A DNA stretch of 64,000 nt. Origin: Candidatus Aminicenantes bacterium UBA2190 (lineage in GTDB: Bacteria; Acidobacteriota; Aminicenantia; UBA2199). The notes under the pieces are model-generated. The model saw only the letters and a program-made list of their open reading frames with translations, was not told where the DNA came from and searched no databases. The stretch is from assembly GCA_002335385.1 (NCBI GenBank), contig DCVK01000071.1:13330-77329 (forward strand), read 5' to 3'. Below are positions 35,664 to 41,608 of the stretch, piece by piece. Numbering within the stretch: the stretch's first letter is position 1; each line of letters opens with the position of its first letter. Position numbers and translations under genes: made by a program.

Positions 35664-36012
35664 ACCGGTTGACGGTAGACGGTGTACGGTCATAACAGCA
35701 ATACGAAGACTAAAATACCAAATCCAAAATTCCAAATAACAAACAATATCCAAATTCCAAATTCCAATTTCCAAAACGAAAGCTCCTTGCAAAGGATTCT
35801 CTTTGTTTTGGTCATTGGGTAATTGGAATTTGGAATTTATTTGGAAATTGGTGCTTGGGATTTGGAATTTAAGTCCTATTAATTCCTTATTCTTCCACCT
35901 TACGCCCTGCGACTTCCGCTTTATGCCTTATGCCGAGTTCTGTTCTTCCTCGTTACGCGTCACGAATAGCGTCTTGTTTTCTTTCGCATAACGCCTGACG
36001 CATAACGAAACT
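35664..36012. repeat. Mosaic intergenic element, copy C
   Basis: NACGGTN heptamers at 35667-35690. AT-rich inverted arms at about 35708-35782 and 35801-35876 around an apex TCCTT-GCA-AAGGA (35784-35796). CCTTATG-type heptamers at 35898-35935. cgttacgcgtcacg and cgcataa/cgcctga/cgcataa arrays at 35951-36008. Confidence 0.85.
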
Positions 36013-36032
36013 CGTTGTTTATTCTTTCCTTG

Positions 36033-37400
36033 TCATGGAAAGAACTCGTCATGGATGGCGCGAACGGCGCGGTCCAGGTCCGGGCTCCTGACCAGGAAAT
36101 AACAGGCGACGGAGGAGGCGCCGGCGGCGGCCATCTCGACGTTGATCTTCTCGCGGGCCACGGCGGTGAAGATGCGGGCGTAGATCCCCTCCTTCTCCAT
36201 GATGCGCTCGCCCACCACCCCGACCAGCGCCAGCCGCTCCTCGAGCTCGATCCTCTTGATGACGCCGTTGACGGCGGCTTTCATTTTACGCAGGCTGCGC
36301 CGGGCGTCGGCGGGATCGAGCAACAGGTTGATGCAGGTCTGCGAGGTGAGCACCGAGTGGATGTTGATGCCGGCGCCGGCCAGCAGCGAGCTGACGCCGG
36401 CGAGCAGGCCGGGCTTGGAGCCGATGCCGGCGCCGTGGATGCGGATGACGGCCAGTCGGCGGTTGGCGGCGATCCCGGCCACGTCCACCGCGCGGTTCGG
36501 GCCGGAGGCGGTGATCTCGCTGCCCGCTCCGGCGGGATCTTCCAGGTTGCGCACGAAGATCCGGGTGCGCGTCCCGGCCAGCGGTTCCACGGTGCGCGGG
36601 TGGAGGATCCTGGCGCCGAAGTAGGAGAGCTCGGCCGCCTCGGCGAACGAGAGGCGCTCCAGGCGGCGCGCCGTCGGCACCCGGGACGGATCGGCGCTCA
36701 TGAAGCCGTCGACATCCTTCCATACCTCGAGGCGCTCCGCCCCCAGGGCATAGGCCACGGCGGCGGCGCTGTAATCGGAGCCGTTGCGACCCAGCAAGGT
36801 GACGGCCCCGCCGGGCCCGCGGCCGAAAAATCCCGGGATGACCGGGATGATGCCCCGGCGCAGCAGAGGGGCAACCTTGGCGCGCAGGACCCTGCGGGTG
36901 CGGTCGCGGTCGATGCTGGCGTTCTCGTAATTGCCGTCGGTGCAAATGCCGGCCCGATGGGCGTCCAGCGCCGCGGATCTTGTCTCCAGGCACTCCAGGA
37001 CGCCGGCCAGCAGCCGCGCCGCCAGCCTCTCGCCGTAGCTCAGCAGCCGGGCTCGTACCGCCGGCGTCAGGTCGCGGTGCCAGGCGATGCCGGTGAGCAG
37101 GCGTTCGACCTGGGCAAGTTGCGCGGCGATCGCAACCTGCAGGCGCTTTTTCGCGGGTCCGCCCGGGCACAACTCGTCGATGACGGCAAGGTGCCGGGTC
37201 GCCAGGGCGGCCAGGATGGGGGGGATGTTCCGCTCATGGCGCTTGGCCTGCTCGATGGCGGCGAGCAACCGCTCGGTCACGCCGTGGATGGCGGAGACCA
37301 CGACCACGGCCCGCCTCTGCGCTGAGATGATGGCGCAGGCCTGCGCGATGCTGCGGCTGTCGCGCAAACAGCCGCCGCCGAACTTCATCACCCTAGTCAT
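36033..37400 (-). CDS. lysC: Aspartate kinase
   Basis: VMKFGGGCL..., with a full-length amino-acid kinase domain plus ACT-like C-terminal domains. 455 aa. Overlaps asd by 8 nt. Confidence 0.9.
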   Translation of the reverse strand: MTRVMKFGGGCLRDSRSIAQACAIISAQRRAVVVVSAIHGVTERLLAAIEQAKRHERNIPPILAALATRHLAVIDELCPGGPAKKRLQVAIAAQLAQVERLLTGIAWHRDLTPAVRARLLSYGERLAARLLAGVLECLETRSAALDAHRAGICTDGNYENASIDRDRTRRVLRAKVAPLLRRGIIPVIPGFFGRGPGGAVTLLGRNGSDYSAAAVAYALGAERLEVWKDVDGFMSADPSRVPTARRLERLSFAEAAELSYFGARILHPRTVEPLAGTRTRIFVRNLEDPAGAGSEITASGPNRAVDVAGIAANRRLAVIRIHGAGIGSKPGLLAGVSSLLAGAGINIHSVLTSQTCINLLLDPADARRSLRKMKAAVNGVIKRIELEERLALVGVVGERIMEKEGIYARIFTAVAREKINVEMAAAGASSVACYFLVRSPDLDRAVRAIHDEFFP

Positions 37401-38451
37401 TCGCCGCCTCCGGGATCCATCCCTTCCGGACCGCCAGCTCGGCGTTCAGCACCGAGCCGCCGGCGGCCCCGCGCACCGTGTTGTGCAGCAGCAGGAAAAA
37501 GTCACAGCGGCTGCCCCGCGGCCGCAGCCGGCCCACGCTCACCGCCATGCCGCGGGCACGCCCGTGCCGCCCCGCCACGACGGGGTCCGGCTCACCCGCC
37601 TGGACGTCGAGGGACGGCTGCGGGCGGTCCTCCTCGCCGCGGACGACGATGGGCTGGGCCGGAGCCGTGGGCAGCTTCAGCTGCTGCGGCTCCGCCGCAA
37701 AGCCGGACAGCGCCTCCTTGATCTCTTCGCCGCCGACCGGCCGGACGAACTCGGCGCTGACGCTCTGCAGGTGGCCTTCGCGCACCGGGACGCGGCTGCA
37801 GGAGGGGTAGATCTCGATGGGGCTGTCCGCGACATGACCGCCCGCCAGCTCGCCGAGGATCTTGCCCGTTTCGCGCACGATCTTCTCTTCCTCGCCGGCG
37901 ATGAAGGGGACGACGTTGCCCAGGATGTCCCAGGCGGCGACGCCGCGGCGGCCGCCGCCGGAAACGGCCTGGAAGGTGGTGACGGTCACGGTCCGCAGTC
38001 CCAGGGCCGTGAGCGGCTTCAGGACCAGCGCCAGCCCTGCGACCACGCAGTTGGGATTGGTCACGATGAATCCGGGGTGGGTGCGCAGCTGCTGCCGCGC
38101 CAGCTCCAGGTGGCCGGGGTTGACCTCGGGGATGAGCAAGGGGACATTCCCGTCCAGGCGGTGGGCGCCGGCGTTGGAAAAGACGCGCAGGCCCGCGGCG
38201 CGCAGCTCGGCCTCCAGCGGCCCGGCCGCGGCGGCAGGCAAGGCCGAGAAGACGGCCCGTGCCCCGCTGCGGATGATTTCGGCCGCCGTGGTCTCGCGGA
38301 TCACCAGCGCCTCGGCGCAGGTCTTGTTCGCCGAGCGGCTGGAGGCGGTAAGGCAGGACAACTCAAAATAGGGATGATCGTCCAGCAGGCGGATGAATTC
38401 CCGCCCGACGAGGCCGGTGCAGCCCAGCAGGGCGACCTTGATCTTCTTCAT
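37393..38451 (-). CDS. asd: Aspartate-semialdehyde dehydrogenase
   Basis: MKKIKVALLGCTGLVGREF... Rossmann fold, and NPNCVVAGL containing the active-site Cys. 352 aa. Confidence 0.9.
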   Translation of the reverse strand: MKKIKVALLGCTGLVGREFIRLLDDHPYFELSCLTASSRSANKTCAEALVIRETTAAEIIRSGARAVFSALPAAAAGPLEAELRAAGLRVFSNAGAHRLDGNVPLLIPEVNPGHLELARQQLRTHPGFIVTNPNCVVAGLALVLKPLTALGLRTVTVTTFQAVSGGGRRGVAAWDILGNVVPFIAGEEEKIVRETGKILGELAGGHVADSPIEIYPSCSRVPVREGHLQSVSAEFVRPVGGEEIKEALSGFAAEPQQLKLPTAPAQPIVVRGEEDRPQPSLDVQAGEPDPVVAGRHGRARGMAVSVGRLRPRGSRCDFFLLLHNTVRGAAGGSVLNAELAVRKGWIPEAAND

Positions 38452-38460
38452 CTTCTCCTC

Positions 38461-39186
38461 CTATCCCCTGCTGATCCGCTGCGGCCGGACGGCGGTGCGG
38501 ACGAGCGGCGGCAGGCTGCCGCCCATGCCCAGGTGATCGCCGGCGACGACCAGCAGCCCGTCGATTCCGTCCGCCGGCGTCTCGCGGATGGCCCGGGCGA
38601 CGGCTGCCCCGTTCCTTTCGCTGACGCGGTTGCAAAGGGCGGTGGCCGTGGCGTCGGCCAGGCAGCCGCTTTCGGCCACGACCGTGGCCGCGTCGGCCCG
38701 GCCGAAGGAGAGGGAATGGCCCACGGTGCCCGACGAGGTGCAGACGGAAAAAATGCCGGGCCGCGGCTCAAGGCGCAGGGCGATGTCGCGCACGCGTGCG
38801 TCGCCGGTAAAGATGCCGACCGTCAGCGGCCGGTCGATGCGCAGCACCACGTCGCCGCCGTTGTCCACGACCACGTGACGGCAGCCGGCGGCGACCAGCG
38901 CCTCCACCGTGACCTGGGCGATGGCGCCGGCGACCGCCGCCATGGGGCCGACCCCGGCCAGGGCGGCGGCCGCGGCCATGCGCCGCGCCACCTGCGGCGC
39001 CGCCATGTCGATGGGCAGCGGCTCCAGCGAGGTGAGAAAGCGCGGCTCAACAACGATATAGGCCTCGATATCGGCGCGGGCGGCGGCGATGGCGCGCTCC
39101 GCCAGCTCCAGGAAGCGCTCGGCGGCGGTCACGGTGGCGAACGTATCCTTGATGCGGATCTGCCGGCGGACCAGGTCAGCGTCCAT
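38461..39186 (-). CDS. UPF0280 / ApbE-like (COG2122) protein
   Basis: 241 aa. The family call is from memory of UPF0280 proteins of methanogens. Overlaps the upstream DUF39 gene by 11 nt. Confidence 0.55.
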   Translation of the reverse strand: MDADLVRRQIRIKDTFATVTAAERFLELAERAIAAARADIEAYIVVEPRFLTSLEPLPIDMAAPQVARRMAAAAALAGVGPMAAVAGAIAQVTVEALVAAGCRHVVVDNGGDVVLRIDRPLTVGIFTGDARVRDIALRLEPRPGIFSVCTSSGTVGHSLSFGRADAATVVAESGCLADATATALCNRVSERNGAAVARAIRETPADGIDGLLVVAGDHLGMGGSLPPLVRTAVRPQRISRG

Positions 39187-40537
39187 GGTCTCCCCCGTGG
39201 ATGGCGCCGGCCGGGCATACCCGGTCGCAGAGGCCGCAGCCCGTGCAGTGCTGCTCGGCGGCCGTCACCTGCCAGTCGTTGTCCCGGCGAAAGACGCCGG
39301 CGGGGCAGATGCCCAGGCACTGGCCGCAGGAAAGGCACAGCGCACGCTCCCAGGCGACGCGCTCCCCCGCGGCCACCCTGCTTCCGGAGCGCCGGGAAGG
39401 AGCGTCTGGTCGCGGCGGCTGGATCGCCAGCGGCCCGGCCGCTCCCTGAACGGGGAGCTTCGCCGCCGGGATGCTCAGCTGAAAGGAGCCCTGTTCGATC
39501 CGCTCCTTCAGGGTGCGCGCGATCCGCCTGGCCATATGCAGGCTGGACAGGGGCGAGGCGGGTACATCCCGGTCCCGCAGCCGGACCGTTCCCGACTTGA
39601 GCTGCTCGTAGGAGCAGCGGCCCAGCAGCGGTCGTTGGCGGGCGGGAACGGCGAAATCGATGATGCCGGTCTCGATGTCCCGGTCGCGGACGGCGGCGGC
39701 GCGGGCGATGCCGGCGTGCAGCACCGGGATGGGGACGCCGATGCCCACGTAGAGCGAGGTGCCGTAGCCCGGGAATGCCGCCGCCCGCAGGAATTCAGGG
39801 GACATGCCCTGCAGGTCGCCCTGCACCATCAGGGTGGCGAACCCCTTTTGCGGGTCGTGCTGCGTGCCGGAGCCGGTGACGTAGCCGACGCCGCCGCCCA
39901 GGAAGATGCGCGTGCCGATGCCGATGGTCTCCAGGCCGGGGTCGTTCATCAGGGGTGACAGCTCGCCGGCGCCGGAAAATGTGACGTTGCCCACGCCGGG
40001 CAGGAGCTTGCCCATGTAGGTGTGCAGCGTGCGCGCGCCGGAGTTGGCGGCGGCGTGATAGCGCTGGTAGGCGTTGCGCGGGTTGCACAGCAGCGCCTGG
40101 TTGAGTCCGGCGAGGGTGACCTCGCCGAGCAGCTCCTTGCGCGGGTAGCAGTCGCTGCCGTAGGACACGGCGCGCAGCACCACCGGCCTGCCGCGCAGCA
40201 GGTCCTCGATGACGTGAGCGCCGCCGTAATCCGCCCCCGGCGTTTCGCAACCTTGCGTGGCGCCCAGGTAGGCGTCGACGGCGGCGATGCCGGCGTAAGC
40301 CTCGACGTCGTTGAGCCAGACGCGGGTCATCTTGATCGGCGGGTCGGAATGACCGAAGTTCAGGAAGGCGCCGCTGGAGCACATGGCGCCGAAGGTGCCG
40401 GTGGTGACGACGTCGACCCCGGCGGCGGCCTGCTCGGCCCCCAGCTCCTCCACGAGCGCGGGCATCTGGTCGGCCGTGACCACGCGCACGGTCCTATTCA
40501 GAATTTTGCGATTGATTTCCTCGACAGTCTTGGACAT
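39176..40537 (-). CDS. Homocysteine biosynthesis protein (DUF39/COG1900 domain fused to a 2x[4Fe-4S] ferredoxin domain)
   Basis: N-terminal region is VVTADQMPALVEE...VDVVTTGTFGAMCSSGAFLNFGHSDPPIKM...WLNDVEAYAG (DUF39-like). The C-terminus carries CLSCGQCLGICPAG and CTGCGLCDRVCPAG. Confidence 0.75.
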   Translation of the reverse strand: MSKTVEEINRKILNRTVRVVTADQMPALVEELGAEQAAAGVDVVTTGTFGAMCSSGAFLNFGHSDPPIKMTRVWLNDVEAYAGIAAVDAYLGATQGCETPGADYGGAHVIEDLLRGRPVVLRAVSYGSDCYPRKELLGEVTLAGLNQALLCNPRNAYQRYHAAANSGARTLHTYMGKLLPGVGNVTFSGAGELSPLMNDPGLETIGIGTRIFLGGGVGYVTGSGTQHDPQKGFATLMVQGDLQGMSPEFLRAAAFPGYGTSLYVGIGVPIPVLHAGIARAAAVRDRDIETGIIDFAVPARQRPLLGRCSYEQLKSGTVRLRDRDVPASPLSSLHMARRIARTLKERIEQGSFQLSIPAAKLPVQGAAGPLAIQPPRPDAPSRRSGSRVAAGERVAWERALCLSCGQCLGICPAGVFRRDNDWQVTAAEQHCTGCGLCDRVCPAGAIHGGDHGR

Positions 40538-40684
40538 GATAAGCCTCCATTTTCTGTTTTTTTTGAAATGGTGGAAGTTGGAGTTCCCCGAACCTGCGCT
40601 TCTAGATCAGAAGCGACAGGCCCGGGCCGGGCATTATCATGCAGTGCGAAAAGAAGTCATTTTGGCACATGGCTGTCAGGCGGG

Positions 40685-40713
40685 AGTTTACACCAGACGC
40701 GCCGGGCTGTCAA
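40685..40713 (-). promoter_or_regulatory. Candidate sigma70-type promoter of the DUF39-UPF0280-asd-lysC operon
   Basis: The minus strand reads TTGACA (40713-40708), a 17-nt spacer, then TAAACT (40690-40685). This leaves a leader of about 140 nt before the ATG at 40537. Confidence 0.5.
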
Positions 40714-40840
40714 TCGCTGCCGGCGAAAAAAAACAGTTGGGCCCGCGGCGCGCCGGTGAGCGCGGGTTGTATTTCCCGGGGAAGCATGCTAGATAATGAC
40801 GGCGCCGCATTGTTCGCGCGCCTTGGTGATGGAGTCATTC

Positions 40841-41608
40841 ATGGCCTTGTTCACGAAAGCCCTGGCAAGAAAACCGTGTCGCAACCTGGTCCACGGCCTT
40901 TCCGGCGCCGGCATGGGGCCCCCGGATTACGGGAAAGCCGTGGAGCAGCACGACGCCTACATCGAGGCCCTGCGCGGCTGCGGCCTGGCCGTGACGGTGC
41001 TGGAAGCCGACGAGGCCTATCCCGACTCGGTCTTCATCGAGGATACGGCGGTATGTTGCGAAAAATCGGCCGTCATCGCCCGTCCCGGCGCCAACAGCCG
41101 CCGCGGCGAGGAAAAAACCGTGGCCCTGGCCCTGGCCGATCTCTACCCGCGGCTGGAGGGGATCCGCGCCCCCGGGACGCTGGAGGGCGGCGACGTCATG
41201 CGCGCCGGCGAGCGCTTCTATATCGGCCTGTCGAACCGGACCAACGGGGATGGGGCGCAACAGCTGGCCGCCATCCTCCGCCGCCATGGCTACGAGGCGC
41301 TGTCCGTGCCCCTGCGCCAGGTCCTGCACCTCAAGACGGGCATGTCCTACCTGGAGCACAACCGCCTGCTGGCTTGCGGGGAATTTTTGCGGCACCCTCT
41401 CCTGTCTTCGTTCGCGACCATCCCCGTGCCGGCCGGGGAAAGCTATGCCGCCAACTCCCTATGGGTCAACGGCCGCGTGCTGGTCCCCGCCGGCTTCCCC
41501 GGGACCCGCCGGGCCATCGAGGACGCGGGCTACGAAACCGTGCTCCTGGACGTCTCGGAGTTCCGCAAGCTGGACGGGGGCTTGAGCTGCCTTTCACTGC
41601 GCTTTTGA
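40841..41608 (+). CDS. Dimethylarginine dimethylaminohydrolase-type amidinotransferase (DDAH family)
   Basis: ALARKP...VFIEDTAV...LEGGDVMR...LHLKTG...KLDGGLSCLSLRF with the C-terminal catalytic Cys. I prefer the ATG at 40841 (GGAG upstream) to the track start at 40796. Confidence 0.75.
   Translation: MALFTKALARKPCRNLVHGLSGAGMGPPDYGKAVEQHDAYIEALRGCGLAVTVLEADEAYPDSVFIEDTAVCCEKSAVIARPGANSRRGEEKTVALALADLYPRLEGIRAPGTLEGGDVMRAGERFYIGLSNRTNGDGAQQLAAILRRHGYEALSVPLRQVLHLKTGMSYLEHNRLLACGEFLRHPLLSSFATIPVPAGESYAANSLWVNGRVLVPAGFPGTRRAIEDAGYETVLLDVSEFRKLDGGLSCLSLRF

Follow-up and report, generated by a model that had tools for sequence, protein, structure and literature searches.

Homocysteine synthesis by way of DUF39 (COG1900) proteins has been described in bacteria as well as in methanogens. 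For Desulfovibrio alaskensis it was shown in 2014 that homocysteine synthesis depends on DUF39, and ferredoxin-fused DUF39 orthologues and frequent adjacency of COG2122 were already recorded at that time (PMC4045070), while work on Desulfovibrio vulgaris in 2018 established that DUF39, a NIL/ferredoxin protein and COG2122 are all required and that the route does not pass through homoserine (PMC5764234). The COG1900a members share an essential Cys54 and a Cys131, the enzyme is now named L-aspartate semialdehyde sulfurtransferase, hereafter L-ASST, and in the enzyme of Methanosarcina acetivorans methionine is bound by the NIL domain and S-adenosylmethionine (SAM) by the CBS domain (PMC12068725). 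Here we describe a four-gene DUF39 operon and its RNA leader in a stretch of 64,000 nucleotides (nt) from Candidatus Aminicenantes bacterium UBA2190 (contig DCVK01000071.1, positions 13,330 to 77,329), hereafter the window, which belongs to a 2.95-Mb metagenome-assembled genome (MAG) of 72 contigs and 88.8% completeness. Judged from its sequence and genomic context, the operon very probably encodes a sulfide-using pathway from aspartate to homocysteine, and the explanation as a whole, i.e. this pathway governed by an attenuator in the leader, seems likely to us. Since the route is established in bacteria (PMC4045070, PMC5764234), the locus is not a discovery of the pathway, but its architecture is a variant, in which a fused enzyme devoid of NIL and CBS domains is joined to the only asd and ask genes of the genome.

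The operon and its predicted route to homocysteine

The 453-residue product of the first gene matches PF01837 (HcyBio) at residues 18-354 with 453 bits, the alignment spanning positions 2-349 of the 349 in the profile, and carries at its C-terminus a dicluster ferredoxin with two CxxCxxCxxxCP motifs (residues 394-447), the linker between the two domains being only about 40 residues long. Furthermore, C53 and C130 are invariant among 21 aligned bacterial and archaeal homologues and would, from the one-residue offset, correspond to Cys54 and Cys131 of M. acetivorans, the MA1821 protein itself lying outside the alignment. The Pfam score and the two family cysteines uphold the membership of COG1900 that had been proposed in the initial annotation. 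The NIL domain (PF09383) has no match in this protein or anywhere else in the genome, and no CBS domain is found in the protein. NIL is a regulatory domain outside the catalytic definition of L-ASST, and the enzyme as predicted from its domains is a stripped form with the ferredoxin fused directly. Against the profile of the coenzyme M (CoM) synthase subtype MMP16/ComF (COG1900d, TIGR03287) it reaches 160 bits, the cut-off being 364, and its ferredoxin is C-terminal, not inserted in the COG1900 domain as in the MMP16/ComF type; by these sequence properties the protein is a COG1900a-type DUF39 and not of the CoM-synthase subtype. No solved DUF39 structure was detectable by sequence.

The domain searches likewise place the three partner proteins as they had been identified and ordered before. 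Asd matches TIGR00978 (asd_EA) with 362 bits (cut-off 301) and the aspartate kinase TIGR00657 with 350 bits (cut-off 209). The COG2122 protein, which has no Pfam match, aligns to 236 of the 238 positions of NCBIfam PRK04334 (E 7e-79), where its 265 bits narrowly miss the equivalog cut-off of 275, and also matches PDB 2O34, a solved hypothetical protein, with an E of 2e-30. The role of this UPF0280 member had been called unclear, which must be amended since COG2122 is genetically required for homocysteine synthesis in D. vulgaris (PMC5764234).

The DUF39 gene is single-copy, and the asd and ask genes of the operon are the only ones in the genome, hence sole copies and not dedicated paralogues. 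At 88.8% completeness the genome yields no metA, metX or metE, and no genuine Cys/Met pyridoxal phosphate (PLP) enzyme (metB/Y/Z/C), the best match being partial and of 38 bits; it does hold one metH and one hom, the latter at a contig edge. The missing canonical route that the initial annotation had anticipated is thus borne out, with the reservation, to be counted against the proposed pathway, that absences are provisional at this completeness. In the predicted pathway, which would reach homocysteine from aspartate by three chemical steps, aspartate kinase and Asd would make aspartate semialdehyde, to which the DUF39-ferredoxin protein acting as L-ASST, aided by the COG2122 protein, would reductively transfer sulfide-derived sulfur, and methionine would be finished by MetH encoded outside the operon. 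We infer that the DUF39-ferredoxin protein forms homocysteine from aspartate semialdehyde and sulfide because no alternative route was found, because metH is present and because the leader belongs to a methionine regulon as described below. Domains, cysteines, gene census and leader regulon hence all support the COG1900 plus ferredoxin route first suggested for this locus. Standard tools would call the lineage a methionine auxotroph, whereas the present evidence points to methionine being made from aspartate and sulfide, and the fused enzyme without NIL and CBS, its gene adjoining those for the supply of its substrate, is a compact candidate if the reaction is to be reconstituted heterologously.

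Gene order was compared over the 80 best related loci (L-numbers denote related loci and G-numbers the genomes compared, G000 being the window's own genome). All 11 close Aminicenantes loci (L012-L022) have the order DUF39-ferredoxin, COG2122, asd, ask, as do four more distant loci (L025, L026, L027 and L029), and since this order is kept in close relatives as well as several distant loci the arrangement is not due to chance; COG2122 adjoins DUF39 in most of the 80. A general aspartate-family operon, in which housekeeping ask and asd lie by chance beside L-ASST and are not dedicated to methionine, may nonetheless be considered, although we find it unlikely. The single copies of ask and asd would suit it, as would the presence of hom, by which threonine synthesis also uses the semialdehyde, and the middle codon of the leader motif described below, which in most lineages encodes Ile, Thr or Met. 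However, dapA is absent from all six genomes searched (the window's and five of the same genus), dapB from all 13 genus genomes searched, nine of which are at least 90% complete, and for LysX of the alpha-aminoadipate pathway only weak ATP-grasp matches and no true LysX are seen in the genus. In addition, the genes that otherwise carry the operon's leader are methionine genes only, and asd-ask stands behind the same leader in G202 and G029. With no detectable dapA, dapB or LysX, the genus appears to spend the semialdehyde on methionine and, via hom, on threonine, and not on lysine or diaminopimelate (DAP), with the caveat that the genomes are MAGs, and since lysine and DAP do not seem to draw on the branch the operon would be close to a self-contained aspartate-to-homocysteine pathway. 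The undetected DAP and alpha-aminoadipate pathways likewise suggest lysine auxotrophy of this Aminicenantes genus, the lineage being probably unable to make lysine or DAP, and one may ask which diamino acid is built into its peptidoglycan. As for threonine, thrC has a strong match in three of six genus genomes searched, and the window's genome shows weak matches only.

Some other aldehyde-to-thiol conversion by the DUF39-ferredoxin protein, for instance a CoM-like one, is scarcely credible even though COG1900 includes the CoM synthase MMP16, for which L-ASST can partly substitute (PMC12068725), since the low TIGR03287 score, the C-terminal ferredoxin and the COG1900a cysteine pattern, the linkage to asd, ask and the methionine regulon, and the presence of metH without any second homocysteine route being found all argue against it.

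The layout of the operon is as it had first been drawn: four minus-strand open reading frames (ORFs) at 36033-40537, transcribed in the order DUF39-ferredoxin, COG2122/UPF0280, Asd, aspartate kinase (Table 1), with an 11-nt overlap at the first junction, a 9-nt gap containing GAGGAG at the second and an 8-nt overlap at the third. Every downstream start has its own Shine-Dalgarno sequence (SD). Upstream lie a divergent DDAH-like gene and adenylosuccinate lyase, and downstream convergent TPM-domain genes; since these neighbours are unrelated, the unit is taken to be the four genes with their leader. The G+C content of the operon is 70-72% (window 36001-40000), that of the flanking 2-kb bins 62-65%.

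A leader with two methionine codons

The roughly 140 nt between a promoter-like site and the DUF39 start are, in an upstream alignment, conserved far beyond the flanking DNA. A promoter scan gave three sites where 0.3 were expected, and both hexamers of the site in question are kept in 11 relatives. Its AUG placed 14 nt past the -10 box (about 7-9 nt in distant carriers), a short ORF follows, which contains two invariant Met codons separated by a single codon, in the following called Met-x-Met. As the middle codon most loci have AUA or AUC, L103 has AUG, L114 and L116 have ACA, and L023 and L024 have GUG. Of 44 distinct instances, 43 have an open Met-x-Met frame that can be followed upstream to an ATG, which holds for the other two frames in 6 and 3 instances. 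At least 18 clearly divergent leader peptides keep the Met-x-Met frame, and this conservation suggests that the leader ORF is translated. Its end is variable, lying directly after Met-x-Met in some lineages and up to 12 codons later inside the following hairpin in others. The residues PGP after Met-Ile-Met were considered as an arrest peptide and rejected, distant loci showing that this is the 5' strand of the hairpin, conserved as RNA.

Two helices can be drawn in the leader RNA. The hairpin P1 has an invariant GC-rich base that begins 5 nt past the second AUG, with the stop codon of the window's ORF in its loop, and 88-93% of its cells are paired with 6-12 pairs showing compensatory changes, values that are attained by none of 500 shuffles, slid controls being 21-52% paired. 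The long-range helix P0 joins the Met-x-Met codons themselves to the SD end and start codon of DUF39. Within the genus and family to which the window belongs, it is 90.9% paired and shows two compensatory changes that are independent of each other. P0 replaces an alternative anti-SD helix of CCACCAUUUC with GAAAAUGGAGG, which is only 60.8% paired over 21 relatives. Ribosome positions were furthermore simulated by folding 21 leaders and taking the mean unpaired probability from the SD through the AUG, with control stall positions. This probability is 0.17 in the free RNA, 0.16 with a ribosome at leader codon 3 and 0.21 with one at the leader stop codon, both of these being controls, and 0.49-0.50 with the ribosomal A site on any of the Met-x-Met codons, which is above the free RNA in 20-21 of the 21 leaders. 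Within this model no back-up structure is seen to re-close the ribosome-binding site (RBS) once Met-x-Met is occupied. There is no terminator-like site on the minus strand in the leader, for which reason translational attenuation is favoured.

Table 1. Positions of the operon genes and leader elements in the window
Feature	Position	Strand	Basis or remark
Sigma-70-type promoter-like site, TTGACA-17 nt-TAAACT	40685..40713	-	10/12 matches
Leader ORF, 22 codons plus stop, MCQNDFFSHCMIMPGPGLSLLI	40602..40670	-	frame conservation
Met-x-Met codons, AUG AUA AUG	40632..40640	-	both AUGs invariant in relatives
Long-range helix P0, 5' strand, CAUGAUAAUGCC (the Met-x-Met codons themselves)	40630..40641	-	covariation
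Hairpin P1	40587..40626	-	covariation
SD GGAGG (40548-40544) and DUF39 start codon	40535..40548	-	RBS region
P0, 3' strand, SD end and DUF39 start codon, GGCUUAUCAUG	40545-40535	-	pairs with the Met-x-Met codons
DUF39/HcyBio (COG1900a)-2x[4Fe-4S] ferredoxin fusion, putative L-aspartate-semialdehyde sulfurtransferase	39176..40537	-	453 aa, domain searches
COG2122/UPF0280 (ApbE-like) protein, putative accessory of the route	38461..39186	-	241 aa, NCBIfam and PDB match
Aspartate-semialdehyde dehydrogenase, archaeal/eukaryal type	37393..38451	-	352 aa, TIGR00978
Aspartate kinase with ACT domains	36033..37400	-	455 aa, TIGR00657

Covariance-model searches of genomes give one copy of the leader in the window's genome, and one per genome in 22 of 27 genomes of the same genus, and when 151 genomes sampled from the phylum were searched, 11 had copies. 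The DUF39 gene lies downstream of nearly all copies. The remainder precede asd-ask-metA (G029), asd and a MetX-like alpha/beta-hydrolase gene (G194), genes for Cys/Met-PLP enzymes (G040 and G138), metH (G204), and in G202 a separate asd-ask as well as metH. G202 thereby has three copies (L136, L139 and L140), the third standing before DUF39-ferredoxin-COG2122. Occurring before metH, metA, metX-like, metB/Y-like and asd-ask genes, the leader marks a methionine regulon irrespective of the homocysteine route, which also disposes of the concern, raised at the outset, that the operon might respond to an unrelated signal. Two weak covariance-model matches (L126 and L130) consist of coding-like sequence with no methionine gene downstream and were taken as false.

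Taken together, the leader is with moderate probability a methionine-sensing translational attenuator. In the resting RNA the Met-x-Met codons would pair with the SD and start region of DUF39 and the gene would be shut, the nested P1 clamping the two strands of P0 together. Scarcity of charged Met-tRNA would slow the ribosome on Met-x-Met, P0 would melt and the DUF39 RBS would open, slow decoding lengthening the open state, and the strong helix 5 nt past the second AUG may prolong the pause. That the ribosome pauses at the Met codons, and in which direction regulation runs, are inferences. The loss of NIL and CBS would fit a feedback that has moved from the protein to the mRNA. Riboswitches, T-boxes and repressors are known to control methionine genes, and in the literature we found no leader-peptide attenuator described for this amino acid. 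We give slightly better than an even chance to the broader proposal that this is an undescribed attenuator family, in which a near-leaderless mini-ORF with two invariant Met codons would read the charging of Met-tRNA, which would serve the DUF39 operon, asd-ask, metA, metX-like, metB/Y-like and metH genes in Aminicenantes and other Acidobacteriota, and which would replace NIL/CBS control where L-ASST has lost both domains.

Several points weigh against a translational attenuator of this kind. No SD precedes the leader ORF, whose AUG lies about 7 nt from the predicted transcription start, and the two Met sensor codons fall far below the number of regulatory codons in classical attenuators. The covariation of P0 amounts to two events only, part of the conservation of the Met codons could reflect complementarity to the AUCAUG start region, and the folding simulation is partly circular. 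Moreover, the distant carriers L025, L027, L122 and L124 have no obvious P0, and their expression platform may differ from the P0 design.

A riboswitch binding SAM, methionine or homocysteine, with the short ORF being incidental, would account for the methionine-specific regulon and for the invariant sequence around the covarying hairpin (GCCCG...CGGGA followed by a conserved CC), but is rather improbable. Rfam 15 gives no match over the window at gathering thresholds, and even at E <=10 the only match over 40400-40900 is a spurious miRNA; the element furthermore consists of a single hairpin and no multi-helix junction. In addition, the strong bias in open frames noted above and the codon-like variation of the middle codon (AUA, AUC, AUG, ACA, GUG) at fixed frame and fixed AUGs are difficult to reconcile with an incidental ORF. 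That the leader is instead the site of a regulatory protein, be it a DNA operator or the target of an RNA-binding repressor, is very improbable, since although its long invariant stretches exceed what structure alone explains, RNA structure is indicated by the compensatory changes of both helices and translation by the conserved frame, and no candidate regulator gene is linked, the neighbours of the operon being unrelated.

Fused forms and taxon labels among the relatives

The nearest relatives of the locus are Candidatus Aminicenantes MAGs with at most 89% DUF39 protein identity. Methanogen-type loci consist of DUF39 with CBS, a separate small ferredoxin gene and COG2122, and some long archaeal matches, at first taken as DUF39-CBS-ferredoxin fusions, are actually two genes. 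In an unrooted DUF39-domain tree, obtained by a quick search with no outgroup, the 19 fused forms lie beyond one branch with a Shimodaira-Hasegawa-like approximate likelihood ratio test (SH-aLRT) support of 94, L026 branching first among them and archaeal split forms being the nearest neighbours, and the fused form may have a single origin. L026 (6965-11525) is found on a 669-kb contig labelled Candidatus Thorarchaeota and holds the same fused four-gene operon, with no Met-codon leader at this locus; it may bear witness to a transfer between domains, or the contig may be mis-binned.

The same operon and leader are furthermore found in L012, L019 and L022, where the DUF39 protein is 69-77% identical to that of the window, and in L029, where it is 64% identical. 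The records of these four bear the labels Clostridia, Chrysiogenales or Patescibacteria, which are probably binning or labelling errors, and indeed the 'Clostridia' bin of L029 is sequence-identical to a genome classed in the window's own family. The leader is also rare around a Planctomycetota-labelled carrier (2 of 121 genomes). In the two carriers with this label, L024 (1998-2205) and L023, it lies 140-210 nt from the DUF39 start, and its ORF is rich in methionine with six Met codons, ends in Met-Val-Met-stop and is followed by a hairpin whose tail is rich in U. In these carriers the element may exist in a form that works by transcription termination.

Comparison with known systems

The catalytic domain with both cysteines and the 2x[4Fe-4S] ferredoxin partner are shared with the L-ASST system of M. 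acetivorans (MA1821 with COG1900a and CBS, MA1822 with NIL and ferredoxin, MA1715 as COG2122), and COG2122 is likewise adjacent in most related archaeal loci. The window differs in that its ferredoxin is fused C-terminally in a protein without NIL and CBS, and in that its operon also holds asd and ask. The systems of Desulfovibrio (Dde_3007; DvMF_1464, DvMF_0262 and DvMF_0044) come closer in having a bacterial DUF39 without CBS, in depending on COG2122 and in not using homoserine as an intermediate (PMC4045070, PMC5764234), but the three genes are scattered there and the ferredoxin protein carries NIL, whereas those of the window are fused or adjacent, devoid of NIL and linked with the genes for substrate formation.

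With the attenuators of E. coli trpL, thrL and hisL and of the ermC type the leader shares a short ORF with codons for the end product and, as proposed here, alternative pairings set by the position of the ribosome, and with the leaderless polycysteine short ORFs of mycobacteria (bioRxiv 10.1101/834739) an ORF that begins at the transcript's 5' end or close to it. It differs from these attenuators in having methionine as the putative sensed amino acid, two sensor codons only and no terminator, and in that the anti-RBS strand would be made up of the sensor codons themselves. SAM riboswitches and Met T-boxes are likewise cis-acting RNA leaders of a methionine regulon, but the leader of the window has no Rfam match and contains a conserved reading frame. 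If its two AUGs indeed sense Met-tRNA, methionine would join the repertoire of attenuation, in a design where the sensor codons themselves block the RBS. In all probability such a methionine sensor has not been described before.

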